NCBI GenBank assembly: GCA_964619055.1
Contig: CAZUDB010000002.1
Coordinates: 29,723 to 93,722 of the forward strand
Direction of reading: 5' to 3'
Length of the DNA stretch: 64,000 nt
Origin: an uncultured Rhodospirillaceae bacterium
GTDB lineage: Bacteria > Pseudomonadota > Alphaproteobacteria > Rhodospirillales > Defluviicoccaceae
Part shown: positions 3,745 to 37,098 of the stretch, one piece after another
Layout of the letters: every line of letters begins with the position of its first letter
How positions within the stretch are numbered: position 1 is the stretch's first letter
Program-made: the position numbers and the translations under genes
Notes under the pieces: model-generated
The model's input: the letters and a program-made list of their open reading frames with translations, nothing else
Database searches by the model: none
Told to the model about the DNA's origin: nothing

Positions 3745-4687
3745 GTGTTGCCCCCCCCGGTTGGTGCGGCGCTTGGCTCAAGTGGCACGCCAAGGCGCCG
3801 AATCTCCCAATCCAGCTCAACGCCGGTAGCGTCCCGGACGCGGCGCCGGACTTCCTCGCCGAGGGCTTCCAGATCCGCCGCGGACGCACCGCCGGCATTG
3901 ATCAGGAAGTTGCAGTGCTTCTCAGAGACGGCCGCACCCCCGATGCGAAGCCCGCGGCAGCCCGCAGCATCAATCAATTCCCAAGCTTTGCAGCCATCGG
4001 GATTGCGAAAGGTACTACCGCCGGTGCGAACCTTGACGGGCTGGGCCGATTCCCGAGCCTGCCGGATTGCCGCCATCCGTCCGGCGATGGCTGTTGGGTC
4101 GCCCGTGGTGCCGCGCAGCCGGGCAGAAACGAACAGCCAACTCTCCGGCGCGCTGCAATGCCGATAGCCGAAGCCCAACTCGACGGCGGAAGCGTGATGG
4201 ATAGTGCCATCGCGATCGATGGCGGTGGCATCGATCACCACATCCCGAATTTCGGTGCCAAAGGCGCCTGCGTTCATCCGCAGTGCCCCGCCGATGGTTC
4301 CCGGCACGCCGGTCAAGAATTCGAGCCCGGCGATACCGGCCTTGCGTGCCGTCACGGCGACGTTGACATCGAGCGCCGCGGCCCCGGCTTCGATCTCGTT
4401 CCCGTCCGGTGTGATTTGGGCAAATGACCGTCCCAGACGGATCACCACACCGGGTACGCCGCCATCACGAACCAGAATGTTCGAGCCGACGCCAACAACG
4501 GTCACCGACACGTCCTCCGGCAATCCGGCCAGGAATGCCGCCAGATCGGCCGCATCGGTGGGGCGAAACAGCACCTCAGCGGGACCGCCGACGCCGAACC
4601 ACGTGATCGCCGCGAGCGGCGCGTTCTCCGTCAGCCGGCCATGTGCCGGCGGCAGCCGGTCGATCAGTCGAGGGTGCTCGGTGCCAA

Positions 4688-4691
<4 letters not shown>
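3741..4691 (-). CDS. murB: UDP-N-acetylenolpyruvoylglucosamine reductase
   Basis: 316 aa with an FAD-binding PCMH-type region ([23 protein letters not shown]) and the MurB C-terminal [10 protein letters not shown] motif. Confidence 0.92.
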
Positions 4692-6135
<1,444 letters not shown>

Positions 6136-6139
<4 letters not shown>

Positions 6140-10977: not shown

Positions 10978-12414
10978 TCAGTCTCCGTTGGCCACCGGGC
11001 GACGATCGTCGTTGAGGGCGGTGAGCGCGTCGACGACCAGACCCATGCGACTGCCGGCGGACCCTTTGACCACGACGACGTCACCGGCCTGCATCATTGC
11101 GGGGAGAAGTGCCGCCAACTCGGCTGACGTGGCGGCGTGCTGGCCGCGGCGTTCATCGGGCAGGGCGGCATGGAGCTCCGCCATCAGCGGGCCTGCAGTG
11201 AATACCAGATCAAAGCCGGCATCGAGCAACAGGTCCGCGAGCCGGGTATGTTCCCAAACTTCTGCTTCGCCCAATTCCAGCATGTCGCCGAGGGCAGCGA
11301 TCCGACGGCCGCCGTTTACGGTCGGCATCGTGGCAGCCGTAGCAAAGGCAGCGGCCATGGAGGTGGGGCTTGCATTGTAGCTGTCGTCGATAAGCGTTAA
11401 CGAGCCGCCGCCGACTGAGATGGCATGACGCTGACCACGCCCCTTGCTGACGGTGAGGTCGGTTAGTGCGGCTGCGGCCGACGGGACGTCAGCGCCAAGG
11501 ACAAACGTCACAGCCAGCACGCAAAGGCTATTAATGATCCAATGGGGGCCGGGCGCACCGACGCGATAGGTCTGGGCCTGCCCGCCGATCTCGGCTGACA
11601 CCGTCGAGCCTTCGGCGTCACTTGCGGCTTCGATCAACTGTGCGCCGGACGCCGGGGCCTCGCGTCCGAAGCCGAAAATGCGGTCGATACCAGCCGCGGC
11701 GGCCGCCGCCTCGAGACGACGAATGTGCTCGTTATCGAAGTTGAGGACGGCGGCACCGCCGGGCACGACCCCTGCAAAAATCTCGGCCTTCGCGTCGGCA
11801 ATGGCTTCCACGGAGGCGAAGTTGCCGATGTGGACCGCAGCCACGGTGGTGATCACCGCGACGTGAGGGCGAACCAAACGGGAGAGGGGGGTGATTTCGC
11901 CCGCGTGGTTCATCCCGATCTCCAGGACCGCGAAATCCGTGTCGCGCGGCAGTCGTGCCAAGCTTAGCGGGACACCCCAGTGGTTGTTCAAGTTGCCGCG
12001 GTTGGCGGCAACGCGGCCCTGATCGGCCAAAACCGCTTGTAGCGCTTCCTTAACGCCGGTCTTGCCGACGCTGCCCGTGACCGCGATGACCTGACCACGC
12101 AGGCGGGAGCGGGCCGCCTTGCCCAGGCCGTGAAGGCCCGAAAACGTATCTGCCACGCGCAGCAACGGTGCCCCTGAAGGCAGCCCTGAAACGTCCCGAT
12201 GGACCATAGCCGCTGCGGCGCCCCGTTCCAGGGCGGCGAGGACGAAATCGTGCCCGTCATGATTGGGGCCGGCGAGCGCGACAAACAGATCTCCCGGTGC
12301 AATCGAGCGACTGTCGATAGAAACTCCGGTTGCGGTCCATGTTCGCTCCGTCCGTCCTGCCGTCGCGTTTGCCGCTTCATCGGATGTCCACAAGTTCATG
12401 CCTGCCGTTGTCAT
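10978..12414 (-). CDS. murF: UDP-N-acetylmuramoyl-tripeptide--D-alanyl-D-alanine ligase
   Basis: 478 aa with Mur ligase P-loop [10 protein letters not shown]. Its start overlaps the murE stop. Confidence 0.9.
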
Positions 12415-21186: not shown

Positions 21187-21825
21187 TTACGGGCGGTGAA
21201 GCTGGTTGTCGAGCACCTTGTCCTCGTAGGTCTGAACGACATCCTGCAGTTCGACGCGATAGGCGCCGATGAACGGCTCGCGATATCCTAGAACATCTCC
21301 GAAGCTGACCGATCGCAGTCGATCGAGAACCTCGTTGCCGACCCGGAACAGCTCCCCATTTGCGGCCTCGCAAGCCTCGAGTTGGCTGGTGGTTTCGGCC
21401 AAATCTGTGGTCAGTACTTGGCGTTCCACCTCCTTCTGGCGGGCCACGTCCGCCACCTCAGTGTACGCGATTTGCCACTTTTCGTTGTTTTCCAGAAGGG
21501 TGTTGCGATACTCACCTTCCTGCTTCATACGGTCGTTGAATTCCTTCAAAGCGGCCTCATAGCGCACCTCGACCTGAGCCACGCGGTTCTCGGCCGCGCG
21601 CGCAACGTCCTCGATGGATGCCTCCAGCTGTTGCACTTGGCTTTGCAAGGCGGTGCGCTCGTTTTGCAGTGTGGTCACCTGCGCATTGGCTTGGCGAAGG
21701 GCTTGTCGCAACCGCTGCTCCAGCTCCGATTGGGCGGTCACAGCGGCGGGCCAAGCCAACAGCCCGGCCAGCAGCACGGCAGCCGAAAGAAGTACCAACG
21801 GTCGCGAGAGCCTAGAAGCGCGCAT
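21187..21825 (-). CDS. Secreted coiled-coil protein of unknown function (last gene of the TonB/TpsB operon)
   Basis: 212 aa with a signal peptide (LVLLSAAVLLAGLLAWPAAVTAQ) followed by heptad-rich Q/E/R/L sequence. Its start overlaps the porin stop by 14 nt. Confidence 0.6.
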   Translation of the reverse strand: MRASRLSRPLVLLSAAVLLAGLLAWPAAVTAQSELEQRLRQALRQANAQVTTLQNERTALQSQVQQLEASIEDVARAAENRVAQVEVRYEAALKEFNDRMKQEGEYRNTLLENNEKWQIAYTEVADVARQKEVERQVLTTDLAETTSQLEACEAANGELFRVGNEVLDRLRSVSFGDVLGYREPFIGAYRVELQDVVQTYEDKVLDNQLHRP

Positions 21826-23665
21826 TAAGGTCGACCTGTATCACGTCAATGGACAGGGGCGGGCCTGCGATTTCCTCACTGCTCAACCACCGCGCCGCCA
21901 GCCAGGTGTTGTCAGCGATGCCAAGCTGGCCGCGGAGAAAGAAGCCTTTGGCATTGGTGCCGCCCAAGTGAAAATCCGAGTCTGTAAAGCCGTCAACCGC
22001 CGCGTCGCTTTCCAGATACTTGTAGCCGATACCAAACTTCCAGTCCCACAACTCATCAATTTTCGGATACCCGACGGAAAGCTGCACAGTGAAACCTTGG
22101 GAGCCTACATCAGCGTCCTCCACGGGCACAGTCTGGCTGTTATGAACAAGAACAAGCCCACCGCTTGAGGCCAGCTTGTTCTTATTGAACGACAGATTAT
22201 TGACGTACTCGGCATCAAAAATCACGTGGATTGGAGTAAACTTCGTATAATCAAACTTGAGATTGAGTGCCAAGATGTTGAAACCCGTGGCAAGGCCGAA
22301 ATATTGCGGATTGCCAAACAGCGCTTGGTCCGCGGGAGATATGTTTCGCAGGGCAAAGAGGGTGTTACCCTTTTGAGAGAATTGCTGCCGCGTGATATCC
22401 GTCGGGCAATCGTCGTTTTGGAACGCCAGTTCGCAATCGCCAAGCTTGCCTCTCATATTGCTGAAGAAGTAATTAGCGATACCAAAGCCGACTTCGAGGT
22501 CTTCCCGTACATCGAAATCGACACCGATTTGTGATCCAATTAAATAGCGGTTGCGGCTGTCTTCTTTCTCGAGTCGAACGGACGAGAAGTTGAAGGCGGT
22601 GTTGTAAACCGGAAATCCGCCCACCGTGAAAAAGGGTCGTATCTGCGGGGTGGCTTCGAATTGGCCGCTGACCGAGAGGCCGTCAAACTGCACGTCGTCA
22701 TCCCAGATCAGGTTTGTGCGGAAGAACGGGTTCGGGGCCCGGCCCACGTCGATCGTCACCTCATCGATGGGCTTGAAGCGGAGATAGGCCTGATCCAGCC
22801 AGATCTGATACTTGCTGAAGTTACCGCCTTGGGCTCGCGAAGAGGCCGAGCCAAGGGTTTGGTTCGTCGACACCGGGCCGTTGTCGCTACCCGTCGCCAG
22901 TCTGATCCGGGTGGTCACGGGGTCGGCGATCTTGGCTTCCAGACCGACGCGAGCGCGAAGGCGGAAGAGCTGACGGTCCTCAGTCGTGTTGAATGTGGGC
23001 GGAATATCGACAGCCGCCGTATTGAATGGTGTCGGTACGAGGATCGGGTCGCCGGTATTAATCTCGTTCACATCGATAAAGTTGTTGAAGTTCTCGCTTC
23101 CAAAAAAGACCTGTTCGAAGCGGAAGCGAACATCGCCAAACAGCTTGATCCTGGAGGTCCACTCCGGAAACGAGTCCGGGGCGGCCCAACTTTGCGCGCG
23201 GGCCTCGATGAGCACGTCCTGCTTGATATCTTCTGTGATCTGGCGTTTGACCGGTTCAGGAATATAGGGAACGCGTACGGTGCCCGGGTCGGCCAGAACC
23301 ACGCCCACCGGCCGGCCCGCAGCGGCCTCCGCCTGCGCTTGTGCCAACAGGGCCTGTGCTGTTGCCTCGTCGATTACCTTGTTCTGCACGAGAAGGCGGA
23401 TCAGGTTCATGACAACCGTCTCGGACTGCGATGGCGAAAAGGGCGTTGGCGCCACCGGAGGTTCCGTCGGCGGCAGGCTCAATCCGGGTGGCTCAAATGG
23501 CTCCGTGATCACGGTGCTGGGATCGGGGATGCCTTGCCCATATCCCGGCGTGATCGTGGCGATGAAAAGAAGCCCGGCGATCGTTCCGGTCCACACCCTC
23601 AGACCGCACGTTCCTGGCTGCTGACGTCGGTCCTTGCCCGTCGCCGGCCGTCGTTGTTCGGCCAT
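21812..23665 (-). CDS. Putative outer-membrane porin-like beta-barrel protein
   Basis: ORF 21812..23761 was trimmed to MAEQRRP at 23665, which has a GAGAGGGGAG SD. It has a hydrophobic leader, a Pro-rich segment, a helical LIRLLVQNKVIDEATAQALL segment and then long alternating aromatic/polar beta-strand patterns. The C-terminus ends in ...DLNARF. Confidence 0.6.
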   Translation of the reverse strand: MAEQRRPATGKDRRQQPGTCGLRVWTGTIAGLLFIATITPGYGQGIPDPSTVITEPFEPPGLSLPPTEPPVAPTPFSPSQSETVVMNLIRLLVQNKVIDEATAQALLAQAQAEAAAGRPVGVVLADPGTVRVPYIPEPVKRQITEDIKQDVLIEARAQSWAAPDSFPEWTSRIKLFGDVRFRFEQVFFGSENFNNFIDVNEINTGDPILVPTPFNTAAVDIPPTFNTTEDRQLFRLRARVGLEAKIADPVTTRIRLATGSDNGPVSTNQTLGSASSRAQGGNFSKYQIWLDQAYLRFKPIDEVTIDVGRAPNPFFRTNLIWDDDVQFDGLSVSGQFEATPQIRPFFTVGGFPVYNTAFNFSSVRLEKEDSRNRYLIGSQIGVDFDVREDLEVGFGIANYFFSNMRGKLGDCELAFQNDDCPTDITRQQFSQKGNTLFALRNISPADQALFGNPQYFGLATGFNILALNLKFDYTKFTPIHVIFDAEYVNNLSFNKNKLASSGGLVLVHNSQTVPVEDADVGSQGFTVQLSVGYPKIDELWDWKFGIGYKYLESDAAVDGFTDSDFHLGGTNAKGFFLRGQLGIADNTWLAARWLSSEEIAGPPLSIDVIQVDLNARF

Positions 23666-23767
23666 CCGTACTCCCCTCTCTTGTCCTGACCGCCCGCTGG
23701 CCGCGGGCGAATTGGTCCCGTCAAGGTTGGTTTGACGGCGGCGCACGATGGCACCGCCCATGGCGAT

Positions 23768-24493
23768 CTATCCCGCGGTTGCGGCCCGCGCTGCGGTGCG
23801 GATTTTGACGTGCACCAATCCCGAGGACGACAGCAGGTCCTGGGGCGGGGGCCGGTCCAGGACCACGCCTTGCAAGGCCTGTCCCGCCAGCACCGTATCG
23901 ATTTCCGGAACGCCCGTGCTTTCCAACAGCTGGACACGGACAATTCGTCCCGATGAATCAACCCAAACATCCATTCGGGTCCCCCTGAACTGCGAAAAGC
24001 GCAGCTTGTCGTGGCGGCGGATGGCCGATGTAATGCTGCGCTGGACGACGCCGGCATACCACCGCTCGGCCGTTGCGCCGCCCTGACCATCGCGGCCAAG
24101 GCGCGACCCACCGGGCCGGCCGACGAGCCCGAACGCATCACCGGGTCCGGTTCCTTCGGCATCAATGCCCAGATCGCCGGCTGGCGGCGGCTCGTCCAAC
24201 TGCTCAATGGGCTCGGGCTCCAGGGGCTCCGGCTCCTGAATTTCGGGCTCGACGATTTCCTCCTCCTCGGGGGGCGGCGGTTCCTCCTCCACTTCGGGCG
24301 GCGGCGGCGGCGGTGGAGTGTTGAGAAGCGTCACCATCTGCTCTGGCGGGGGGGCTGTCGGCTGCGAGTCCTGAAGGGTCGAGACGAAGACCAGCAGTAG
24401 GGCAGCGGAACCTCCGCCCAAGACCAGCGTGATCAAGCCGAGCATATTGCGCTGCAGCCAGTTGCCTCGCTGTTCCTCGTCCGTGTCCAGCAT
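23768..24493 (-). CDS. tonB: Energy transducer TonB
   Basis: 241 aa with an N-terminal TM, a Pro/Glu-rich rod (PPPPPPPEVEEEPPPPEEEE...EPEPLEPEPIE) and a C-terminal TonB_C-like domain. Confidence 0.8.
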   Translation of the reverse strand: MLDTDEEQRGNWLQRNMLGLITLVLGGGSAALLLVFVSTLQDSQPTAPPPEQMVTLLNTPPPPPPPEVEEEPPPPEEEEIVEPEIQEPEPLEPEPIEQLDEPPPAGDLGIDAEGTGPGDAFGLVGRPGGSRLGRDGQGGATAERWYAGVVQRSITSAIRRHDKLRFSQFRGTRMDVWVDSSGRIVRVQLLESTGVPEIDTVLAGQALQGVVLDRPPPQDLLSSSGLVHVKIRTAARAATAG

Positions 24494-24522: not shown

Positions 24523-24930
24523 TCAGCCGCTTGTGAGGGCCTTGGTGGCCAAACCGATTTTGGTGATGTCCAAGCGCGCGAGCAGGTCGAGAACATCAAT
24601 GACAAGCTGATACGCGGTGTCACCGTCGCCCTTGACAACCACTGGGAACTCCCCCTCGGCCGCTTGGGCCGTACGAAGGCGGCTTTCCAGTTCGCTCAGC
24701 GTCACGGCATAGGTGTCGAGGAAGATTGTCCCATCCCGCGTCACCACGATCGCCTTTGTGCTCGGCTTACCAAGGTTTGGTGCCTCGCTCGCTTTCGGCA
24801 AATCGACCCGGATGCCCTGGATCGCTACCGTTGTCATGATGATGAAAATGATCAGCAACACGTAGGCAAGATCGAGCATCGGCGTGATGTTGATCTCGTC
24901 GTACGGTTTCTCTTCATCCTGCTGTTTCAT
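24523..24930 (-). CDS. exbD: Biopolymer transport protein ExbD/TolR
   Basis: 135 aa. The sequence EINITPMLDLAYVLLIIFIIM followed by a periplasmic domain is the typical ExbD architecture. Confidence 0.85.
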   Translation of the reverse strand: MKQQDEEKPYDEINITPMLDLAYVLLIIFIIMTTVAIQGIRVDLPKASEAPNLGKPSTKAIVVTRDGTIFLDTYAVTLSELESRLRTAQAAEGEFPVVVKGDGDTAYQLVIDVLDLLARLDITKIGLATKALTSG

Positions 24931-24935
24931 CGGAT

Positions 24936-27032
24936 CTATTCCGCGGCAATGCGATCGTCGTTCGCATAACGATCGGGAGCGAACGTCTCGGCGAGCCGGG
25001 TGACGAACTCATCGATGAAGACCTGCATGTCCGCCTGGACGGTCTTGATGCGCGTCAGCAGGTAGTTGTACCCAAACAGGGCGGGAATGGCGACGGCGAG
25101 ACCGGCGACCGTGGCTGTGAGGGCCGCCGCAACACCCGGGGCGATGGCATTGATGTTGACTTCTCCCACAGCGGCGATGCCGGCAAACGTGATCATGACG
25201 CCGATACAAGTGCCGAATAGCCCGAGAAATGGTCCGCCGGAGATGGCGATGGTCAGCATCACCATCATGCGGTTGAGCTTCTGGGATTCCATTACCATCC
25301 GGCCGTCGATCCGTGCACGCACGGCGGCTAGCATCTGGGGGCTCAGGATCAGGCCACTCTGAGCGTCCGCCTGTTGGCGGCTGCGGCGATTGACGCGTCC
25401 ACGCAACTCGAGACAGCCGGACGAATAAAGCCGGTAAAGCGATGATGACCGCAGTTTTCGTTTGGTTTTGGCTGGCAGCTCCTGGCCGCCGCCTAGAAGC
25501 TGGTCCGGGTCCATGGTTTCGAGCAGATCGAGATCATTGGCGACCTTCTCGAACGTGGCGCGAAACACGTCGTTGGCTTTGTCTTGCCGGCTCACGAACA
25601 CGCCTTTGGCATACATAACGACCCAACTGATGACCGCCATGACGAACAGGATGGCGATAACCACCCATCCGTCAAAGGTCACAGATTTGAGGATGATGGC
25701 GAAGTAACCAGTGAGCCAGCTTGAGGATTCCTCTTCGACGGCAAGCGTGACGAGACCGGTCTCCGTTCCTTCCGAAGCGACCATGCCCGCAATTTCCGTG
25801 GGCGTGCGCGCCACCCGTGCAATGCGGAGCTCGTCGATCTCGCCAACAAAGCCCGTTGTGCTGGGTGTGGCTTGGGCAGGCTGCGTAGTGGGCGAGGGGG
25901 TGGCTGCCGTGGCGGGCGGTGCCGTCGTTGGGTCGCCCGCCTCCGACGTGGCTGGTTCGGCAGCGGCGGTGTCCGCCTCAGGGGTCTCTGGACTTGGTTC
26001 TGCCGTCGCGTCGTTGACCTCAGCCGGTGCCGCTGCCACGTCTGCGGGTGCTGCCGCTACGCGTGGCGCCGGCGCAAACGGGTCTCCGCCAAGGGTGATC
26101 GGGCCGCCGATGCCCGGGAACGTGGCCGTTACAGTGGCGGTTGGTTGGCCATCCACGTAAAGACTAACCTCATCCTCGGCACCCGTAACCGCCACGTGTT
26201 GCCACGCTCCGGGCGCCAGCGGCACATCCGACACGATGCGGATTGGACCGTCCGGTCGGCCGATCTCGACGAACGGCGTCGCGCCGTCCACACCGATCAA
26301 AAAAGAGGCCGAGCCGAAGCGACGACTAAGGACGATGGCGTTCTCGCGTCCCTCATCGACCTTCAGCCACATCGAGACCGTCAAAGGCGCGCCGTCGGGA
26401 AAGCTGAGCCACTGCGTGGCCGGGATTTCGATCGTTGTCGCCCCGTCAAACTTGGCAGCGTTACCGATCTGGCCGGCGGGACTAGCCAATCCCGGCGTCG
26501 CGGCGTGATTGCCGTACTCTGTCGAGTCCAGTGGCGGCTCACCTAACTCGGAGAAGTGATAGACCAGGACCGTATCGGCATCGAAGGTCTGAGCCGGATT
26601 TCCCACGGCCGCAGCTTCCGGATTGCCATAGTACACCCAGAGGTCTTGGGTGGTTCCCGGCTGGATATCGCGGCCGTCCAGCCAAACGAGCCCGATGCCC
26701 TGCAAGGCATCATACTTTTCAATGTGAAAGGTGACGGGGGTCTCTGCATCGTCGGCGGTGACAAAGCGGATGTCGATGCCGTTTTCATGGGCTCGGAAGA
26801 AGGGAAACGCCGGATCGGACAGCCGGACCAAAAGCGGTATGCGCTCAATGGCCCCATCAACGGGCGGAGTGACGGCTGTGGTGTCGACCGTAATACGCTT
26901 TCGCAGCGGCCAAGCATCGTCCCACCAAGCATGGGCGACGCTCGTTAGCGCCATGCCGATCGCCAGGACTAACCAAAACAATCGCTGGGCGGCGACGGCC
27001 CGCGTGCGGTCCATAATACGATGGCTTGCCAT
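24936..27032 (-). CDS. exbB: MotA/TolQ/ExbB proton-channel protein with N-terminal periplasmic DUF2341 + LamG (concanavalin-like lectin) modules
   Basis: 698 aa. After the signal/TM it reads WWDDAWPLRKRITVD, the typical DUF2341 start. A LamG-like region follows (LSFPDGAPLTVSMWLKV...WQHVAVTG...VSLYVDG...GEIDELRIARVART), interrupted by an Ala/Pro/Thr-rich tract. Then come three TMs with the MotA_ExbB core (GGPFLGLFGTCIGVMITF...AAALTATVAGLAVAIPALFGYNYL). Confidence 0.8.
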   Translation of the reverse strand: MASHRIMDRTRAVAAQRLFWLVLAIGMALTSVAHAWWDDAWPLRKRITVDTTAVTPPVDGAIERIPLLVRLSDPAFPFFRAHENGIDIRFVTADDAETPVTFHIEKYDALQGIGLVWLDGRDIQPGTTQDLWVYYGNPEAAAVGNPAQTFDADTVLVYHFSELGEPPLDSTEYGNHAATPGLASPAGQIGNAAKFDGATTIEIPATQWLSFPDGAPLTVSMWLKVDEGRENAIVLSRRFGSASFLIGVDGATPFVEIGRPDGPIRIVSDVPLAPGAWQHVAVTGAEDEVSLYVDGQPTATVTATFPGIGGPITLGGDPFAPAPRVAAAPADVAAAPAEVNDATAEPSPETPEADTAAAEPATSEAGDPTTAPPATAATPSPTTQPAQATPSTTGFVGEIDELRIARVARTPTEIAGMVASEGTETGLVTLAVEEESSSWLTGYFAIILKSVTFDGWVVIAILFVMAVISWVVMYAKGVFVSRQDKANDVFRATFEKVANDLDLLETMDPDQLLGGGQELPAKTKRKLRSSSLYRLYSSGCLELRGRVNRRSRQQADAQSGLILSPQMLAAVRARIDGRMVMESQKLNRMMVMLTIAISGGPFLGLFGTCIGVMITFAGIAAVGEVNINAIAPGVAAALTATVAGLAVAIPALFGYNYLLTRIKTVQADMQVFIDEFVTRLAETFAPDRYANDDRIAAE

Positions 27033-28670
27033 CTACAAACCAGCCGAGAGCGTGAAAACCACGTTCTTCTCGTCCTCTTCCTCAAGGCCGACCCGGGTAA
27101 TGGGGAAAGCAATGTCGACGGAACCGCTGACCGTATCGAACAGATCAAATCGTGTGCCAATGCCGGCGCTGAGCAGCCGGAAATTGGCGATTTGCTCGGG
27201 TAGCGGATCGATCACCTTTGCGTCGGCCCCATCCAAAAATGCATAAAAGCGCCACTCATCGACAACATCCAGGCCAGCCAAGTCGTTGACGATCGGAGCA
27301 AGGGAAGGAGCGCGCAATTCGAAGCCGCCGAAAATGCCCTCGTCGGCAAGCGCGGATGACTCGAAGAACCCGCGCACTGTGGTCAGCCCACCGAGAGATA
27401 GCTGCTCATTGATGATCAAGGGGCTACCGGCAAGTTGGCCGCCGACCCGCCCCTGGATTTGAATGTCGTAGGGTAAGGTGTGCGTGTGCTCAAGTCCAGC
27501 TTTTAGATATATGAATGACGGATTTGCGCCAAATCGGTTGCGCTGCACTTCTGTGGCATCGCTGCCCAATTGCCCAAACCCGAAGATAGCATCGACACTA
27601 AATAATGTAGATGAGTTGAGCGTGGTCAGTGCTGCAAAATATGAAAGGGTTCCTGGAAAGTACTTTACGGGGACATCATCTTGTGTGATTTCAAATTCGT
27701 CGGTGAATTCTTTATATTGCAGCGTTACTGAAACATTGTGGAAGAAATCGGGCGCTCCCGGCAAGTCCCAGATCGCACGGGTGCCGATGGAGAAGCCGTC
27801 GCCGATTACGCTAGCATCACCTGCAGACACGACATCGCTGTCCGACGAAAAGCCGAATGCTTCGACGCTTAGGCCTGGAACGATTGGAATGGGCGCGGTG
27901 TAGGACGCGGAGAAGAACTCCGAGTCCAGTCTCCGTTGCGGTGCAACCTGGTAAAACAACCGCAGCGAGTGATCGAGCTGAAATAAGTTATCGTAGCGCA
28001 CCAGCGCGTTGAGGCGGAGCGGTTTGGTCGTGCTGGTGTTGCGGTTGTTTAGTTCCAAGCGGGCGTGTAGCGGCAGGCGTTCATCGACAACCAAGTCCAC
28101 GTCGAAGCTCCGGGCTTCTACGTCCGGCTGCCCTGGAACGAACTGAACTTCGCGGTCACCTGTGTTGAGGGCGGCAATCTCCAGGATCGCCTGTGACAGG
28201 TCGGGGACTGAGCCTTCGGCGAGCGAGGGCACACCATCCTTGATGGCTTGCGGTGTTGTGTAGCGGGCGTTTCGCACGCGCAACCGTCCCACCCGAAACT
28301 CGGTGACCTCGATCCGGATCACGCCCGAGCGAAAGTCCTGGTCCAGCGGCACTGTCACCGCGACCACCTGACGTCCGCTATCCAGGTAAGCCTCTTCGAT
28401 GGATGCCCGCGCCGCTTCCACATCCGCGTCCGTTTTGCCTGGGCCGAGGAAAGGATAAACAATCGTCTCGATCAGCGGGGCGGGGAGCGCCGTGACGCCC
28501 GTGACAGCCACCTCGTAAATGTCAAACTGCGAGGAAGCCAAGGCGGTTTCGGGCTGTGCGCGCGTACTGCCATTCGCGAACGCGGTCGCACACAATACGA
28601 GGACCGCAATGCACAACGACCGGGCTGACGCGGTCCTAACTTGAAGCGGCATGGCCTTAATACCCCGCAT
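27033..28670 (-). CDS. ShlB/FhaC/HecB-type two-partner-secretion transporter (TpsB, Omp85 superfamily)
   Basis: 545 aa with a signal peptide and a POTRA-like region (YEVAVTGVTALPAPLIETIVYPFLG...IRIEVTEFRVGRLRV), followed by a 16-strand-type barrel region. Its stop abuts the exbB-like start (27033/27032). Confidence 0.72.
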   Translation of the reverse strand: MRGIKAMPLQVRTASARSLCIAVLVLCATAFANGSTRAQPETALASSQFDIYEVAVTGVTALPAPLIETIVYPFLGPGKTDADVEAARASIEEAYLDSGRQVVAVTVPLDQDFRSGVIRIEVTEFRVGRLRVRNARYTTPQAIKDGVPSLAEGSVPDLSQAILEIAALNTGDREVQFVPGQPDVEARSFDVDLVVDERLPLHARLELNNRNTSTTKPLRLNALVRYDNLFQLDHSLRLFYQVAPQRRLDSEFFSASYTAPIPIVPGLSVEAFGFSSDSDVVSAGDASVIGDGFSIGTRAIWDLPGAPDFFHNVSVTLQYKEFTDEFEITQDDVPVKYFPGTLSYFAALTTLNSSTLFSVDAIFGFGQLGSDATEVQRNRFGANPSFIYLKAGLEHTHTLPYDIQIQGRVGGQLAGSPLIINEQLSLGGLTTVRGFFESSALADEGIFGGFELRAPSLAPIVNDLAGLDVVDEWRFYAFLDGADAKVIDPLPEQIANFRLLSAGIGTRFDLFDTVSGSVDIAFPITRVGLEEEDEKNVVFTLSAGL

Positions 28671-28795: not shown

Positions 28796-28813
28796 ATGAC
28801 AATTGTGTTACAG
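28796..28813 (-). promoter_or_regulatory. Candidate Pho box for the minus-strand TpsB/TonB operon
   Basis: The minus strand reads CTGTAAC-acaa-TTGTCAT, scoring 5/7 and 6/7 against the CTGTCAT direct-repeat consensus with 11-bp phasing. It lies about 125-140 nt upstream of the tpsB-like start. No convincing -10 follows it. Confidence 0.3.
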
Positions 28814-29185: not shown

Positions 29186-29231
29186 TTATCATAAACCTGT
29201 CACCGAGATGTCATCGAGTCTGCAGTAAGAT
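29186..29231 (+). promoter_or_regulatory. Pho box (three 11-bp-phased CTGTCAT-like repeats) plus -10 element upstream of the PstS-like gene
   Basis: TTATCAT (29186), CTGTCAC (29197) and ATGTCAT (29208) are spaced exactly 11 bp apart with A-rich spacers. TAAGAT at 29226-29231 lies 11 nt after the last repeat. Extra CTGTCGC (29163) and CTGACTT (29181) copies sit upstream. Confidence 0.55.
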
Positions 29232-29416
29232 GCTGACTGCGGATGCGCGATTCAGCGGGTGGATTCACTGAAAAACTCAATCGCGACCTTGGTCACGCAA
29301 TGTTGTGTTGAAAAGCAAAGTCATCGTGGGCTGAGCGAATGTTTATCAGCGACGGCAGGCTGAATTGCGATCTGCACTTGGACGATGAATTGAATTTTGG
29401 TCAACTTGGGAGAAAT

Positions 29417-31270
29417 ATGATGGATCGCAAGGTCCTTTTGGGTTCGGTCTGTGCCGCCGCTGTGGTAGTGGCAATGGGGTCGAACACGCCCAGCGCTGTT
29501 GCGCAAGAGCAGATCTTTGGCGGTGGCGCCTCATTGCCGTCCGTCGTGGTCCGCAAGCTCATGAATTGCTTCGCCATTCCCATTGAAAATACCAGCGGCA
29601 CACCCAGTTTCAACGATCCGTTCTGCTCCATCCCGCGGGGTGCGAACGCGTACGTGAGTTACGCGACGGTGGGCAGCAGCCGTGGCCGTGAAGGCTTCGT
29701 TGCTGAAGATTCCCGCGCCCTGGCCCGCAGCCAGCGTCCGAGCACGGGGGTCGTCATTCCGTACTCCAGCACGGCGGGTTCCGACTACGGCACGGACATT
29801 CCGTCGCCTCCGGGCTTCGTGGATGGTGACAACACGCTGCCCAACGGTGTTCTGGTGTTCGACGACAACCGCAACACCTTCAGCCCGGACAGCAACTTCG
29901 ACGACCCGGTCACGGGCCCTCAGCAAACCGGCCTTGCCGGCCTTGGCTTTGACCCTGCGCCTGGCCCGAACCCGGTCGGCTTCTGGCGTCTTCATTACAC
30001 CACCTCCGAAGAGCCCATCTTCCAAAGCACGGCCCAAGGCGGCAGCGGCGTCTTCCGCCAAACCTACGATTGCTACGAAGGCGATGCGAGCAACAACCCC
30101 AACGGTCGTTGCAATCGCAACAAGGAAGCGACCAACGGCAAGCCGTTGCAGATCCCGTTGCTGGCTGTTGGCGTGACGATCGCCTACAACGTGCCCGAGT
30201 TCTGTGATCAGCCGGCCGATGTGGACCCCAACTGCACCAGCCGTTCTCCGTTGCCGCGTCCGCCGTTCCCGGTGAAGGACCCCACACAGCCGGTTCCGAC
30301 TCCCAGCGGCCAAAACCGCCTCGTCATCTCCGAAGGTGCGGCGTGCGGTCTGTTCACCGGCAAAATCGACAGCTGGTCTCACCGCTCGATCTCACAGTAC
30401 TTCAACAACCCGCGTCTGCCGGATGAGGCCGTGACTGGCGTCATTGTCCGTGCAGATGGTAGTGGTACGCAGTTCCTGTTCTCGTCCTGGCTGGATGCGG
30501 TCTGCGACGGTATCGGCAACGTCAAGTTCAACGGTGGTGCCAACGCGTCACCGAATTACGACCAGGACGTGGGTATCTACGAAGTGCCCGGTAACGAGGG
30601 TGTCGCCAACATCGTAGCCGCTAATGACTGGTCGGTTGGCTTCATGACGCCGGGCCTGACCGACCTCTCATCGGACGAGATTGACAGTGCCGGATTCACG
30701 GCGACCGAAATCGGAACGACGGGCAACACGCTGACCGACGCGGGCGGAGTGAAGGACACGCCGGTCTCGGCTCGCATCATCAACCGTGCCGGTAAGGCCC
30801 AACTTCCGACATCTGAGAACGTCCGCGAAACCATCTCAGTCAATTCGGAGCCCCCGCGCTGCAACACGAACGCTGGCGGAAACGTCGTCGCCGGTGAGCC
30901 GTGCTTGGAGCCGGAGAATTGGGGCTTGGCGTTCGATGTGGTCGATCCGGTCGGTCGGGACACGTTCTACCCGATCGTCGGCTTCAACTGGCTGAACCTC
31001 TATGAATGCTATCAGCGTCGTCCCGTGGCGCAGATCATTCAGGAGTTCCTGACGTTCTACTACCGCCAAAACAGGTTCCAAATCACTCGGATCCTGGAAA
31101 ACAACGGCTTTGCCAACCTGCCCGCCGACTGGCAGAGCGCCGTTGAAACCATCATCGTTGCCGGCAACACCCGGCCTTCCGGTGTTGCGGCCTTCGGTAA
31201 CGTGAACGCCGATTGCCTTGGCTTGGCCGGTGCTGGCCGCGGCTGGCAGCCCGGTTTCCCGCCGACCTGA
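29417..31270 (+). CDS. Large secreted PstS-family (phosphate-binding, PBP type 2) protein with long insertions
   Basis: ORF 29339..31270 with start at ATGATG 29417 after a GGGAGA SD. Signal peptide MMDRKVLLGSVCAAAVVVAMGSNTPSAVAQ. PstS-like motifs are GGGASLPSVV, VGSSRGREGF and VRADGSGTQFLFSSWL. It is 617 aa, against about 320-370 aa for ordinary PstS. Confidence 0.65.
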   Translation: MMDRKVLLGSVCAAAVVVAMGSNTPSAVAQEQIFGGGASLPSVVVRKLMNCFAIPIENTSGTPSFNDPFCSIPRGANAYVSYATVGSSRGREGFVAEDSRALARSQRPSTGVVIPYSSTAGSDYGTDIPSPPGFVDGDNTLPNGVLVFDDNRNTFSPDSNFDDPVTGPQQTGLAGLGFDPAPGPNPVGFWRLHYTTSEEPIFQSTAQGGSGVFRQTYDCYEGDASNNPNGRCNRNKEATNGKPLQIPLLAVGVTIAYNVPEFCDQPADVDPNCTSRSPLPRPPFPVKDPTQPVPTPSGQNRLVISEGAACGLFTGKIDSWSHRSISQYFNNPRLPDEAVTGVIVRADGSGTQFLFSSWLDAVCDGIGNVKFNGGANASPNYDQDVGIYEVPGNEGVANIVAANDWSVGFMTPGLTDLSSDEIDSAGFTATEIGTTGNTLTDAGGVKDTPVSARIINRAGKAQLPTSENVRETISVNSEPPRCNTNAGGNVVAGEPCLEPENWGLAFDVVDPVGRDTFYPIVGFNWLNLYECYQRRPVAQIIQEFLTFYYRQNRFQITRILENNGFANLPADWQSAVETIIVAGNTRPSGVAAFGNVNADCLGLAGAGRGWQPGFPPT

Positions 31271-31316: not shown

Positions 31317-31337
31317 CCCTCCGGCTTAGTGTGTTAC

Positions 31338-31384
31338 GAACCCCGGACTCCCGCCGCAACGCGGGGTCCGGGGTTTGCTTTTGT
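31338..31384 (+). terminator. Rho-independent terminator candidate
   Basis: The stem GAACCCCGGAC...GTCCGGGGTT is followed by TGCTTTTGT. Confidence 0.55.
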
Positions 31385-32658: not shown

Positions 32659-33738
32659 TCAGCGTACCGACACAGAGGCGCGTGGCATTAAAACGGTATA
32701 GTCAAAGTCCAGAACGACACTTGGATCGTAATTGCCGTCAGCATCCTTATAAGGAAAGCCCTTGCAGTTCCGGTTTTTAACTGCGACCGTTCGCAGCCGC
32801 AGAGCACCAAAATCTGCGTAGCCCGGTACCTCCATCTTATTTAGCACCTCGGACCAAGCGTAGATCGTGTCGCCGGCGAACGTCGGTGCCGTGTGGCGTC
32901 CCCCATTGATGGCGGCAACCCGAATTCCGTTGGCGAGCCCATTGAAGGTCAGAGCGCGCGCGAGACTGATGATGTGGCCACCATAGATCAGGCGTTTGCC
33001 GAAGCGGCTCTCCTTTTGGATAACTGCGTCGAAATGGACCCGGGCCGTGTTCTGGTAGAGCCGGGTGGCCATCTGATGCTCGGCCTCCTCAATCGTCATA
33101 CCGTCCACGTGGTCAATGCGCTCACCAACCGCATAATCATCCCATAGGTAGGGGCTGCCGGCCAAGATTGTGTCGTAGCGTTCCACATGGAGTTGGTAGG
33201 GAACGAGCAGGTCGCCAATGTCTAGCGCTTCCGCCAGTTCCGGGATGACCGGCTCCGTCGATGGCGGCCCGGCTTGACGCTTTTGGACCATGACCCATCG
33301 AGTGTATTCCAGAACCACCTGTCGATCCTGGTTCAGCCCCGTGGTACGGACGTAAACGATACCGGACTTGCCATCTTTGTTCTCGCGCAGGCCGATGACT
33401 TTTGACACGGCGCGGACGGTGTCCCCCGGGAACACCGGTTCGCCGAACCGGCCTTCCGCATAGCCGAGATTGGCTACGGCATTGAGCGAGATGTCCGGAA
33501 CCGTTTTTCCGAAAACCATGTGAAAAATCAGGATACTATCGACAGGTGCATGATCGAGGCCCAAGCTGCGGGCGAATTCCGCCGAGGAGTTGACGACGGA
33601 GCGGTTGCCGTAGAGCGCGATGTAGAGGCTGACATCGCCGTCGGTCACGGTCCGAGGCGTCGCGTGGATAATCTCCTGACCGAGAGAAAAGTCCTCGAAG
33701 AAGTTTCCCGAGCTGGTCTTGACGGTCGTTGTGTTCAT
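32659..33738 (-). CDS. mch: Mesaconyl-CoA hydratase (double hot-dog MaoC-type enoyl-CoA hydratase)
   Basis: 359 aa. The sequences GNFFEDFSLGQEIIHATPRTVTDGDVSLY, IFHMVFGKTVPDISLNAVANLGYA and YGGHIISLARAL...DTIYAWSEVL closely resemble the Chloroflexus-type Mch as I remember it. The gene is adjacent to mcl. Confidence 0.78.
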   Translation of the reverse strand: MNTTTVKTSSGNFFEDFSLGQEIIHATPRTVTDGDVSLYIALYGNRSVVNSSAEFARSLGLDHAPVDSILIFHMVFGKTVPDISLNAVANLGYAEGRFGEPVFPGDTVRAVSKVIGLRENKDGKSGIVYVRTTGLNQDRQVVLEYTRWVMVQKRQAGPPSTEPVIPELAEALDIGDLLVPYQLHVERYDTILAGSPYLWDDYAVGERIDHVDGMTIEEAEHQMATRLYQNTARVHFDAVIQKESRFGKRLIYGGHIISLARALTFNGLANGIRVAAINGGRHTAPTFAGDTIYAWSEVLNKMEVPGYADFGALRLRTVAVKNRNCKGFPYKDADGNYDPSVVLDFDYTVLMPRASVSVR

Positions 33739-33793
33739 TGGGGCTCCCTGCTCAGGCGTTTCGTGGGCTAAGGGACTTGAGTGACGTCTTGGG

Positions 33794-34843
33794 TCAATCG
33801 AGACCGTACTGGGTGGCCAGATCCGGATCCTTGCGTGCGACGAGGCGGGCCAAGTCGACGATCACCTTGGCCTGCTTCCAGGTGGCGTCATCTTGCATTT
33901 TTCCGTCGATCATCGCGACGCCCGAGCCGTCCGGCATGGCGTCAAGAATGCGCTTGGCGAAGGCGACTTCGCCCGCGTCCGGACTGAACACCCGCTTGGC
34001 GATCGCGATTTGATTGGGGGCAAGCGACCAAGCGCCGGCGCAGCCCATCAAAAACGCATTTCGGAACTGCGCTTCGCAGCCGGCTTCGTCCTTAATGTCG
34101 CCGAAGGGTCCGTAGAAGGCGCGCAATCCGCACGAGACGCAGGCGTCAACCATCCGCGCGACGGTGTAGTGCCACAGGTCCTGCTGCAGGAATGCGCGGC
34201 TGGTCTCGCCCTCGGCCGGATCCGCGAGTACGCCATAGAACGGATGGCCGCCGCCGACGCGGGTCGTCTTCATGCCACGAGAGGCCGCCAAGTCGGCTGG
34301 GCCAAGGCTCATGCCGTGCATTCGGGGACTGGAACACGCGATTTCGTCCACATTCTTCACGCCCTGGGCGGTTTCCAAGATGGCGTGGATCAGGATGGGC
34401 TTGGAGAGCCCGTGCCGCGCTTCTAGTTGGGCTAGCAACTGATCGACAAAATGGATATCCCATGGCCCCTCGACCTTTGGCACCATGACAACGTCGAGCT
34501 TGTCGCCCACGGCCTCGACGATCGCCATCATATCATCGAGGAACCACGGGCTATTGAGCGCGTTGACTCGCGTCCAAAGCGCTGTGTCACCGAAGTCGGT
34601 GACGGCGGCGACCTCGATAAATCCGGCCCTGGCGGCATCCTTCGCGTCCGCCGGGATCGCATCCTCCAGATTGCCGAGAATGACATCCACCTGAGCTGCC
34701 ATGTCCGGCACGCGTGCCCGAATTTTCTCGATATGGGGGGGGAAGAAGTGAATCATCCGCTCGGGCCGGATCCGCAGCTCGCGGAACGGAAGGGGCGCTC
34801 CTGCGGCCAGCGGCTTGTAAAACTCGCGCGGCGTCTTCAACAT
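33794..34843 (-). CDS. mcl: L-malyl-CoA/beta-methylmalyl-CoA lyase (HpcH/CitE family), Chloroflexus type
   Basis: ORF 33794..34999 was trimmed to [46 protein letters not shown] at 34843, preceded by GGAGGGG SD. This gives about 349 aa. It carries [21 protein letters not shown] and [26 protein letters not shown]. Confidence 0.82.
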
Positions 34844-35170
34844 ATTCCCCTCCATTTTTTCATTTCCTTCGCACCCGCACAAGAGGTAGCACCCCCAGGC
34901 GCGCCCGTCAAACGCCAGAAAGACCCTTGGCGGACCCGCCCGACGGATGCCAGCTCCAAACCGCTCCGGTCCGAATCGAGAAGCTGGTTGGGCCTGCACG
35001 AACGCTGCCGGGAGGTGGTGCGGTGCTGGCGAACAATGCCGAGCGCGCCGCCGTGTCCTTGAATTCTTGATGACAAGGGTGTTCCCGAATAGTCATCCTG
35101 GTTCCCTGTTTGTAAGGTGATCAGGTGCGGCGGTGTTTCGGTCAGGTGAAGGCCCGCACTCGGCGATTCA

Positions 35171-36154
35171 ATGAACGTCATTCACGAGCCTCGGTTGCAA
35201 TTTCGATCCATCTGGATCTCGGACATTCACCTCGGAACCCGAGGCTGCAATGCCGACATGCTGCTGGATTTTCTTCGGCAGACGGAATCGGATTACCTCT
35301 ACCTGGTCGGCGATATCATCGATTTCTGGCGGCTTCGCAAGACGTGGTATTGGAAACAAACTCATAATGACGTTATTCAAAAAATCCTTCGAAAAGCCCG
35401 CAAAGGAACGAGGATAATCTACATCCCCGGAAACCACGACGAGAATTTTCGGGACTTTACAAATCACAGATTCGGACGTGTTGCCGTCCTCCATGACACC
35501 TTTCATACCATGGTAGATGGTCGTAAATTTCTGGTCATGCATGGCGACCATTTCGATGGTGTCGTCAAATATGCGAAATGGCTCGCTTATCTTGGCGATA
35601 CGGCTTACGTCTGGCTGCTGAACGTGAACACATGGATGAATTATGTTCGGCGAAAGCTGGGTTTTTCATATTGGTCGTTGTCTGGGTATTTGAAGCATAA
35701 GGTCAAAAACGCGGTTGAATTCGTCAGCAACTACGAAAATGCTGTTGTTTCGGAGGCACGGCGCCGTGGCGCCGACGGCGTGATTTGCGGCCACATTCAC
35801 ACGGCCGAGATCCGCGAAATAGACGGGATTGTCTATTGCAACGACGGCGACTGGGTTGAAAGTTGCACAGCGTTGGTGGAGCATTTCGACGGACGGCTTG
35901 AGATCCTACGTTGGTCCGAAGTTTTCGACGTTCGCCAAGCTGAAGGGGCCGCTGGGTCTGAACCGGCAAAGCCTGCTGTTGCCGAGCACGGGATGGCCAG
36001 GGGCTCAGCCTCGGTCCTTGCTGTGCAGCGACTACTGTTGGCGGAAACTGAACGCGCCGGGACGGCGAGGGTTGATCAAGAATGCGGATCTGCATCGTCT
36101 CGGATGCCTGGTTTCCTCAAGTCAATGGCGTTGTTCGCACGCTCCACACGTTAA
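35171..36154 (+). CDS. plcP: LpxH-like calcineurin-type metallophosphoesterase; likely phosphate-starvation phospholipase C PlcP
   Basis: WISDIHLGTRGC, YLVGDIIDFW, IPGNHDE, MHGDHFD and CGHIHTAEI are the metallophosphoesterase motifs. The gene is immediately followed by, and overlaps, a GT4 gene. This is the plcP-agt arrangement known in Alphaproteobacteria. Confidence 0.62.
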   Translation: MNVIHEPRLQFRSIWISDIHLGTRGCNADMLLDFLRQTESDYLYLVGDIIDFWRLRKTWYWKQTHNDVIQKILRKARKGTRIIYIPGNHDENFRDFTNHRFGRVAVLHDTFHTMVDGRKFLVMHGDHFDGVVKYAKWLAYLGDTAYVWLLNVNTWMNYVRRKLGFSYWSLSGYLKHKVKNAVEFVSNYENAVVSEARRRGADGVICGHIHTAEIREIDGIVYCNDGDWVESCTALVEHFDGRLEILRWSEVFDVRQAEGAAGSEPAKPAVAEHGMARGSASVLAVQRLLLAETERAGTARVDQECGSASSRMPGFLKSMALFARSTR

Positions 36155-37098
36155 GCCAGCGGCTGGAGCAGCGTGGGTACGAGCCGCGCTTTGTGACACC
36201 GGATCGTTTTCGAAGCACGCCCTGTCCTACCTATCCCGAGATCCGTCTGGCTATGACTCGGCCCTCGGCCGTGGCCGATATGATAAATGCCATCGAGCCA
36301 AGCGCCGTTCATATCGCAACCGAGGGACCCCTTGGCTGGCTCGCGCGCCATTACTGCCTTAGGCGAGGCTATCCGTTCACCACGGCCTATCACACGCGCT
36401 TCCCCGAATACGTCAAGCCGCGTTTCGGCATTCCGCACTCTTGGAGCTATCGCGTGCTCCGCCACTTCCATGGCCAGTCAGCCGGCATCATGGTGTCGAC
36501 GCCGAGCATCGAAGCGGAGCTTCGGGCGCGCGGATTCGATACCCCAATTAGGCGCTGGACACGCGGCGTCGACCTAACGCTGTTTCGGATTCGCCACGAT
36601 GTCGACTTGCGGCTCCCGCGGCCGATTTCCTTGTTTGTCGGCCGGCTCGCGGTCGAGAAGAACGTGGAGGCCTTCCTGAAACTCCAGCTGCCGGGCAGCA
36701 AGGTCGTGATCGGAGATGGCCCAATGCGGGCCCAATTACACTCCCATTATCCAAACGCACATTTTGTTGGACCGCAGTTTGGGGAAGATTTGGCACGCTA
36801 CTATGCCGGATCGGACGTTTTGGTGTTTTCGAGTCGGACCGACACGTTCGGTCTTGTCATCCTGGAAGCGTTGGCCTCGGGCCTGCCCGTCGCCGCCTAT
36901 CCGGTGCCGGGACCGCAGGACGTTCTGGATGGTTTCGACGTCGGCGTCCTTGACAACGATCTTGGCGCCGCCGTGAAGCGGGCCCTAATGATCGATCGCC
37001 CGCGCTGCCGGGCTTGGGCTGAACGCTTTTCGTGGGATGCCAGCGCGGATCAATTCCTTAGCAATCTCGCGGTGTTTCGCCCCACGGGTCAAACCTGA
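36082..37098 (+). CDS. agt: GT4-family glycosyltransferase; likely diacylglycerol glycosyltransferase (Agt-like)
   Basis: 338 aa starting MRICIVSDAWFPQVNGVVRTL, with a C-terminal GT1-fold E-x7-E-like region (SRTDTFGLVILEALASGLPV). It overlaps the plcP-like gene by 73 nt. Confidence 0.6.
   Translation: MRICIVSDAWFPQVNGVVRTLHTLSQRLEQRGYEPRFVTPDRFRSTPCPTYPEIRLAMTRPSAVADMINAIEPSAVHIATEGPLGWLARHYCLRRGYPFTTAYHTRFPEYVKPRFGIPHSWSYRVLRHFHGQSAGIMVSTPSIEAELRARGFDTPIRRWTRGVDLTLFRIRHDVDLRLPRPISLFVGRLAVEKNVEAFLKLQLPGSKVVIGDGPMRAQLHSHYPNAHFVGPQFGEDLARYYAGSDVLVFSSRTDTFGLVILEALASGLPVAAYPVPGPQDVLDGFDVGVLDNDLGAAVKRALMIDRPRCRAWAERFSWDASADQFLSNLAVFRPTGQT

Follow-up and report, generated by a model that had tools for sequence, protein, structure and literature searches.

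The DNA analysed here is a 64,000-nucleotide stretch of contig CAZUDB010000002.1 (assembly GCA_964619055.1, positions 29,723 to 93,722 of the forward strand) from an uncultured Rhodospirillaceae bacterium of the Defluviicoccaceae, and this whole 64-kb stretch is referred to as the window. The gene under study lies on its plus strand and encodes a 617-amino-acid (aa) protein of the DING/PstS phosphate-binding type. The open reading frame (ORF) runs from 29339 or 29417 to 31270; the shorter start at 29417 was taken as correct because the orthologues share the identical N-terminus MDRKVLLGS, and the 617-aa translation from this position was free of stops. A GGGAGA ribosome-binding site was found at 29408-29413, just 5' of the ATG-ATG pair at 29417 and 29420, and the database copy of the protein (P0002) uses the second ATG, one codon later, which gives 616 aa. 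The mature form, with the predicted N-terminus QEQIFGGGASLP, comprised 588 aa (62.6 kDa, pI 4.5), and no lipobox cysteine was present at the cleavage site of the signal peptide. The features within the gene were as follows.

29417 to 31270, plus strand: coding sequence of the DING/PstS-type phosphate-binding protein, 617 aa (ORF list, translation, profiles and model)
29417 to 29503, plus strand: Sec-type signal peptide, MMDRKVLLGSVCAAAVVVAMGSNTPSAVA followed by QEQIFGGG, cleavage between AVA and QE (read from the sequence)
29519 to 29548, plus strand: GGGASLPSVV, with Ser39/Leu40 at the positions of PstS Thr10/Phe11 (alignment)
29672 to 29698, plus strand: GSSRGREGF, with Ser87 at the position of PstS Ser38 (alignment)
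29708 to 29986, plus strand: largest insertion, residues 98-190, acidic (pI 4.05), rich in Gly, Pro, Asn and Asp, predicted to be disordered, with a predicted local distance difference test score (pLDDT) below 50 (alignment and model)
30005 to 30010, plus strand: Ser197-Glu198, with Glu198 at the position of PstS Asp56 (alignment)
30047 to 30136, plus strand: insertion, residues 211-240, with the Cys219/Cys232 pair (alignment)
30203 to 30310, plus strand: Pro-rich insertion, residues 263-298, with the Cys263/Cys273 pair (alignment)
30449 to 30493, plus strand: RADGSGTQFLFSSWL, with Arg345, Asp347 and Ser349-Gly350-Thr351 at the positions of PstS Arg135, Asp137 and Ser139-Gly140-Thr141 (alignment)
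30674 to 30760, plus strand: insertion, residues 420-448, a confidently modelled beta-strand-rich excursion of the C-lobe (model and alignment)

A preliminary description of the locus had reported an oversize PstS-family protein that keeps three hallmark motifs, and both points were borne out. The length was 1.7 times that of the genome's own PstS proteins (353 and 361 aa), and GGGASLPSVV, GSSRGREGF and RADGSGTQFLFSSWL were located at residues 35-44, 86-94 and 345-359. The phosphate ligands of Escherichia coli PstS, which we take to be Thr10/Phe11, Ser38, Asp56, Arg135 and Ser139-Gly140-Thr141 together with Asp137, were all found to have an occupied counterpart in the alignment, with a conservative change of Asp56 to Glu; across the long family this position was Asp or Glu throughout. 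A loss of the anion-binding residues, which had been named beforehand as a refuting result, was not seen in the alignment.

An AlphaFold2 model of the protein was built from 24 sequences and displayed a two-lobe Venus-flytrap fold of the PstS type, with a mean pLDDT of 74, a predicted template modelling score (pTM) of 0.79 and low confidence at residues 1-26. When the model was searched with Foldseek, it matched 37 phosphate-binding proteins with a probability of 1.00. The top matches were DING proteins, namely PfluDING (2q9t/4f1u), HPBP (2v3q/4m1v) and a Stenotrophomonas maltophilia protein, with E values from 1e-15 to 5e-18 and target template modelling (TM) scores of 0.70-0.77; for PfluDING the E value was about 1e-17 and the TM score 0.75-0.77. 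PstS proteins of E. coli, Yersinia, Burkholderia and Mycobacterium came next, with target TM scores of 0.80-0.84. The insertions were mapped by aligning the protein with 18 ordinary PstS sequences. Compared to canonical PstS, eight insertions were detected (residues 58-75, 98-190, 211-240, 263-298, 420-448, 480-491, 585-590 and 607-616), which amounted to 234 aa in total and contained 44% Gly, Pro, Asn and Asp compared with 27% in the core. The extra stretches rich in these residues that had been described around 29760-30330 were therefore real, and that span took in the three largest. For the largest insertion, residues 98-190, a Pfam search with a threshold as loose as E ≤ 1 gave no match, and orthologues did not retain the NNPNG string of residues 225-229.

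Two other origins of the extra length were considered and ruled out. A tandem duplication did not agree with the single set of ligand motifs, the one Venus-flytrap fold and the placement of the additional residues in eight insertions, and a two-partner secretion (TPS) domain or beta-helix within the insertions did not agree with the lack of any Pfam match at E ≤ 1 in residues 96-308. The mature protein contained 12 cysteines, six of which were invariant across 14 family members, while the others (219/232, 263/273 and 482/496) were gained and lost strictly in pairs. Because the non-invariant cysteines come and go in this pairwise manner, we infer up to six disulfides in the mature protein.

The curated models barely matched the protein. 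PBP_like_2 gave 28.9 bits against a cut-off of 27, and the PstS equivalog model TIGR00975 reached 70.4 bits, spread over two partial stretches, where its cut-off is 205 and the real PstS proteins of the genome score 328 and 372 bits. When a profile was made from 14 long forms, PfluDING matched it with 170 bits (E 9e-49), ahead of E. coli PstS with about 114 bits (about 1e-31), so the comparison with DING proteins that had been drawn beforehand was apt. The best single-sequence match in the PDB was 4m1v, and the DING N-terminus DINGGGATLP aligned with IYGGGATLP of the family, just past the cleavage site. The literal DINGGG of DING proteins did not occur at the predicted mature N-terminus of the 617-aa protein, the GGGA(T/S)LP part alone being common. 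A word-indexed homologue search returned 3 full-length relatives only, at 32-45% identity, while an exhaustive profile search revealed a far larger family, with 1091 clusters at E ≤ 1e-10, of which 60 reached E ≤ 1e-30; many were 450-620 aa long. Every one of these forms that was read combined a signal peptide with GGGATLP, the SGT motif and a conserved C-terminal cysteine. The literal DINGGG was absent from the shorter top matches, and the classical DING proteins fell outside the top 150 representatives. Two metagenomic relatives (P0012 and P0014) came from contigs too short to show gene context. Judged by its sequence, the 617-aa protein is a member of an uncurated DING-related family of 450-620 aa, which is much closer to DING than to canonical PstS.

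Upstream of the gene lies a 745-bp intergenic region that is shared with a divergent operon headed by a gene for a TpsB-type transporter. The regulatory features of the gene were as follows.

28796 to 28812, minus strand: second Pho-box-like pair, TGTAACA-caat-TGTCATA, facing the TpsB operon (motif scan)
29186 to 29214, plus strand: triple Pho box TTATCAT-aaac-CTGTCAC-cgag-ATGTCAT, the repeats being in 11-bp phase and some 200 bp ahead of the start codon (motif scan)
31337 to 31383, plus strand: intrinsic terminator, with a -34.7 kcal/mol hairpin (z -6.8) and, after it, the U-tract UUUGCUUUU (folding)

The pattern TGTCAYN5TGTCAY was searched with up to one mismatch. Three matches were found in the window, all of them inside the 745-bp intergenic region, while 0.76 was expected for the whole window. 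In the 3.29-Mb genome there were two exact matches, and 41 matches with one mismatch compared with 12 in a reversed-sequence control. The equivalent place of the congeneric locus L001, about 230 bp upstream of the orthologue, carried the sole match in 12 kb, and the promoter of the genome's own pstS1 carried a similar array in 11-bp phase, CGTCAC-n5-CGACAT-n5-CGTCAT. These results suggested that the gene is probably under PhoB control. The terminator begins about 70 nt past the stop codon; its loop is long, and the hairpin was detected by folding and missed by a simple terminator scan. Because this strong terminator stands directly downstream, the gene was regarded as monocistronic.

Additional Pho-box-like sites were observed elsewhere in the genome. 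An AT-rich intergenic site with one mismatch (TGTCATAAAATTGTAAT) lies about 160 bp upstream of a gene for a secreted 646-aa 5'-nucleotidase (C46:3007-4947, minus strand) with a PEP-CTERM-like C-terminal sorting tail (VPVPAAIALFGLGLAAFGVIRRRAA), which is likely a member of the Pho regulon on the basis of this site. The other exact match of the genome, C39:1069-1085, stands directly upstream of a 242-aa putative esterase (PF00756; ORF 1090-1818, plus strand). In the window, a calcineurin-type metallophosphoesterase gene (LpxH/PlcP-like) is followed by a GT4 glycosyltransferase gene at 35171-37098 on the plus strand, and the 170 bp upstream of the former, inspected by eye, contained unphased half-sites only and no phased Pho box.

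The divergent operon on the minus strand consists of six tightly packed genes, as follows.

27033 to 28670, minus strand: TpsB-type Omp85 transporter (POTRA_2 and ShlB), the first gene of the module (domain models)
24936 to 27032, minus strand: ExbB/TolQ-type proton channel with an N-terminal DUF2341 and LamG extension (domain models)
24523 to 24930, minus strand: ExbD/TolR (domain models)
23768 to 24493, minus strand: TonB-like protein with an N-terminal anchor, a Pro/Glu-rich linker and a weak TonB_2 C-terminal domain (domain models)
21812 to 23761, minus strand: Porin_5 (PF16930) outer-membrane protein, 596 bits, C-terminal end ...LNARF (domain models)
21187 to 21825, minus strand: secreted 212-aa coiled-coil protein, with a 14-nt overlap between its start and the end of the porin gene (ORF reading)

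Orthologues of the TonB-like protein matched TonB_2 clearly. In tblastn searches, the same six genes were found in the same order wherever Porin_5 was found, and the position of the long PstS relative to this module varied. It adjoins the module in the congeneric L001/L019. A 523-aa long PstS is co-directional and follows the coiled-coil gene in L016, which belongs to another family, and a 599-aa form is the first gene of the row in L017 (genome G111), which belongs to yet another family. The metagenomic contig L003 has the order coiled-coil-PpiC-YbjN-PstS-long, and in L024 (genome G266) GspE, GspF and further genes stand between a 460-aa PBP_like_2 protein and the TpsB module that comes after them.

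For the co-occurrence analysis, long/DING-like PstS proteins were counted at E ≤ 1e-40 in a 401-genome sample of the class and a 401-genome sample of the phylum. Porin_5 was present in 6/401 genomes of the class sample and the long/DING-like form in 4/401; all 4 lay within the 6, and they represented four different families. In the phylum sample, Porin_5 was present in 13/401 genomes and all 6 genomes with the long/DING-like form lay within the 13. The co-occurrence was significant by Fisher's test, with p = 3e-10 raw and 1e-5 at one genome per genus without the query genome, this crude thinning being the sole correction for kinship. It had been asked whether the long form always neighbours a TpsB/TonB cluster. 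The part of this expectation that held was that the long form was found solely in module-carrying genomes, usually adjacent to the module and often near type II secretion genes; the converse did not hold, and the module often occurred without the long form.

Several further features of the module and its surroundings were observed. The N-terminal extension of ExbB is about 430 residues, and its fusion of DUF2341 with the lectin-like LamG was kept in all the Porin_5 modules examined (L016, L017, L019, L024, L026 and L027); DUF2341 appendages on such stators have been listed as of unknown function (PMC12505986). The alignment of Porin_5 proteins displayed a common N-terminal amphipathic helix (NLIRLLVQ.GVI), a Pro/Ala linker and a V.VPYIPE strand, and conserved alternating Arg residues stand before the barrel in predicted strands (RxRxRARLG, GDxRxRxE). 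In the L017 island (3976-8975 and 11140-12045) there were a pseudopilin-like (N_methyl) gene, a T2SS-K-like gene between the long PstS and TpsB, and two large TPR/OGT-type glycosyltransferases upstream. On the other flank of the gene, a MaoC/mesaconyl-CoA hydratase-like and a CitE/malyl-CoA lyase-like gene stand side by side in the window (32659-34999, minus strand); in L002 the orthologue likewise has the hydratase gene as its neighbour, which makes this flank syntenic within the lineage.

The genome has a separate phosphate importer, a canonical pstS-pstC-pstA-pstB operon plus a second pstS, on contig C28. When its own PstC and PstA were searched against the whole 64-kb window by tblastn, nothing was found, and PstB retrieved generic ABC ATPases only, at about 30% identity. 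The absence of pstCAB beside the gene, as described beforehand, was thus confirmed. Also beside the homologues in L001, L016, L017, L003 and L024 there was no pstC or pstA, and a linkage of homologues to ABC permeases, named earlier as evidence for ordinary periplasmic binding proteins, was not seen; they were instead linked to the TpsB/ExbB/ExbD/TonB/Porin_5 module across families and classes.

Given a complete PstCAB in the genome, the protein might be an accessory periplasmic PstS, that is, a third, starvation-specific binder that feeds the importer of C28, with the neighbourhood reflecting mere co-regulation. The PstS fold, the ligand residues, the Pho box and a Sec signal peptide unaccompanied by any other sorting signal all fit this role, and PstS paralogues are commonly multiple, the pst operon itself having two. 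Nevertheless, we consider it unlikely in view of the 70 bits against the equivalog cut-off of 205, the much closer kinship to secreted DING proteins, the 234 inserted residues, of which 93 form a disordered acidic loop on the N-lobe, and the fact that synteny and co-occurrence across classes tied it to an outer-membrane module and to genes of type II secretion and never to ABC permease genes.

The possible routes of the protein out of the cell were evaluated from the secretion genes of the genome. The TpsB of the window is the sole ShlB-family protein of the genome, and the sole TPS-domain (PF05860) protein is encoded by a 4438-aa ORF on another contig (C10:39029-52345, minus strand), beside an ExeA/GspA-like ORF and 14 kb from a GspD secretin gene (C10:23482-25329, minus strand; 466 bits against a cut-off of 351). 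A conventional cargo candidate for TpsB therefore exists, because this is the genome's single TPS-domain protein, and the window TpsB probably serves this separate TpsA and not the 617-aa protein. The hxc-tpsA arrangement of the Pseudomonas type is thus kept on C10 and is separated from the tpsB-Ton-porin half.

TPS secretion handles unfolded beta-helical cargo. That the 617-aa protein is an unconventional cargo of the adjacent TpsB transporter was suggested by its gene being divergent from and adjacent to the sole tpsB of the genome, with no tpsA gene within the window. The domain PF05860 was not matched in the whole protein and gave no match in residues 96-308 even at E ≤ 1, the Venus-flytrap model contained no beta-helix, and a disulfide-rich folded binder would be a poor TpsB substrate. 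The 4438-aa protein on C10 is moreover the expected canonical cargo, and in Pseudomonas PdtB (TpsB) secretes PdtA, whereas the DING protein leaves the cell through the Hxc type II system (PMC7035377, PMC2225411). This route appears very improbable. An extracellular location is suggested, indirectly, by the kinship with DING proteins, by the secretion of the Pseudomonas fluorescens DING protein through the Hxc type II system (PMC2225411), by the Pho box, and by the type II secretion genes that were found beside relatives and in this genome.

A closer coupling to the module is also conceivable. As a haemophore-like "phosphophore", the secreted binder would pick up phosphate outside the cell, return and dock on a Porin_5/TpsB complex, and the ExbB-ExbD-TonB motor would strip off the phosphate and import it. 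The strict co-occurrence at genome level, the frequent adjacency to the six-gene module and divergent promoters with Pho-box-like sites facing both ways are consistent with this possibility, and the conserved alternating Arg residues in the predicted strands of Porin_5 may suggest an anion channel. Haemophore uptake by HasA/HasR would be an analogue. Another is provided by HxuA/HxuB/HxuC (PMC4873976). Against this, the module has no plug domain of a TonB-dependent transporter, no DING-like partner could be detected for about half of the Porin_5 modules, and P0003, an orthologue in L002 (724-2472, 582 aa, 45% identity), kept the protein yet lost the binding site. The model of the Porin_5 partner reached a pLDDT of 41 and was unusable, and the Porin_5 profile matched no PDB sequence at E ≤ 1, which leaves the family without a solved relative. 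Taken together, this mechanism seems rather doubtful to us. If it were true, orthophosphate would have a TonB-dependent uptake route through the outer membrane, TonB energy would be put to a new use, and a function could be assigned to the Pseudomonas exbB2-exbD2-tonB4-PA0696 block and to bacterial DING proteins generally.

Based on these results, we lean, narrowly, towards the reading that the 617-aa protein is a phosphate-starvation-induced, exported phosphate scavenger of the DING type, which belongs functionally to an island of type II secretion, TpsAB, Ton and Porin_5 genes and not to the Pst importer. What the results show of this reading is the fold, the ligand set, the signal peptide, the promoter and terminator signals, and the conserved synteny and co-occurrence. 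Most likely the protein would act as the soluble binder in a conserved island for phosphate starvation, the other parts being the six-gene module, type II secretion genes and a giant TpsA adhesin. In this scheme, PhoB would activate the promoter, and Sec would export the protein, which would fold with as many as six disulfides. Its release to the cell surface or the medium would then fall to the type II secretion system, as has been shown for Psp, the DING protein of P. fluorescens on which this passage across the outer membrane is modelled, and the released protein would capture scarce phosphate for re-uptake, with orthophosphate as the presumed high-affinity ligand. A mechanistic coupling of the protein to the Ton and porin genes would be a further, putative element.

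Several observations weigh against this scavenger reading. With Glu in place of Asp56, the specificity could differ from that of PstS. In P0003, most of the ligand residues were lost (GGATFES, INGTDAV, TTSGHP, RADGTAAP) while the fold-defining residues, the cysteines and the insertions were kept; P0003 may have lost binding and taken on a different role, and phosphate binding is therefore not indispensable to the retention of the protein in this lineage. In the phylum sample, 7/13 Porin_5 genomes had no detectable long/DING-like PstS, and since Porin_5 modules exist without a DING-like partner, the module works without it. The Pho-box pattern had no match in the more distant loci L016 and L017, and the type II secretion genes of the genome are on a different contig from the gene. 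The signal peptide and the disulfides would fit a periplasmic protein just as well. Because P0003 lost its ligand site and partnerless modules exist, caution is needed against assigning the protein a simple obligatory role.

The gene provides a handle on phosphate scavenging outside the cell in some bacteria. What bacterial DING proteins and the tonB4 block do for the cell is in both cases poorly defined, and their vague association had been seen in one genus; the present results turn it into a testable hypothesis of broad phylogenetic reach, in which a dedicated apparatus would scavenge phosphate outside the cell or at the outer membrane. New here is a DING-related family of 450-620 aa which lies outside the curated models and, among the genomes sampled, was confined to those that carry the module; in this lineage, the long DING-like gene and the module are wired to back-to-back Pho-box promoters. 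If the coupling were not real, the protein would still illustrate how the PstS scaffold tolerates insertions while the ligand site stays.

Four known systems were compared with the locus. The likeness to haemophore and HxuA-type systems (HasA/HasR; HxuA/HxuB/HxuC) is by analogy only and lies in the position of a secreted binder gene beside TpsB and TonB-ExbB-ExbD genes; here there is no TonB-dependent transporter with a plug domain, and the binder has the fold of a solute-binding protein and not that of a TpsA or haemophore. With canonical PstS (E. coli 1ixh and the genome's own PstS on C28), the protein shares the fold (TM 0.80-0.84), the ligand positions and probably the regulon, but it lies below the TIGR00975 cut-off, is 1.7 times longer and has links to outer-membrane and Ton genes instead of adjacent permease and ATPase genes.

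The module resembles the Pseudomonas aeruginosa block pdtB(TpsB)-exbB2-exbD2-tonB4-PA0696(putative porin)-PA0697(helical)-PA0698(YbjN)-PA0699(PpiC), which is induced via PhoB/VreI (PMC2729926, PMC7035377). The order TpsB, ExbB, ExbD, TonB-like, putative porin and helical secreted protein is the same in the window, YbjN and PpiC genes are present in the related locus L003, and the reported phosphate-starvation regulation (PMC2729926, PMC7035377) has its counterpart in the Pho boxes of the window. The correspondence to the PAO1 genes was drawn solely from gene order and published annotation, and Porin_5 was matched in 0/14 control genomes. Unlike this block, the window contained no vreAIR-like cell-surface-signalling genes, and its ExbB carries DUF2341 and LamG. 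In P. aeruginosa, PdtB secretes PdtA, and the Ton part of the block was termed "still uncharacterized" (PMC7035377); no later characterisation of the exbB2-exbD2-tonB4-PA0696 module was found in a literature search.

The closest counterparts were bacterial DING proteins (PfluDING/Psp of SBW25 and PA14_55410; 2q9t, 4f1u). Identity to the DING structures is about 18%, and the protein has 588 mature residues and 62.6 kDa compared with 370-380 residues and about 40 kDa, with about 234 aa of extra loops that include the 93-aa disordered acidic insertion. The N-terminus is QEQIFGGG rather than DINGGG, Glu occupies the Asp56-equivalent position, DING proteins have two disulfides against up to six predicted here, and the island is split over two contigs. 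Despite these differences, the Venus-flytrap PstS-type fold gave its best structural and profile match with DING proteins, GGGA(T/S)LP stands directly past the signal peptide, the full set of phosphate ligands is present, and regulation of the Pho type is again combined with the lack of pstCAB partner genes. DING and PstS have been located on surface appendages of clinical P. aeruginosa strains (PMC3949141), and the DING gene psp of P. fluorescens SBW25 has the hxc type II secretion cluster on one side and the gene of a 4083-aa TpsA on the other (PMC2225411). Like its Pseudomonas counterparts, the long form described here belongs to an island in which genes for type II secretion and TpsA/TpsB are combined with exbB-exbD-tonB-porin genes (PMC2225411, PMC7035377).

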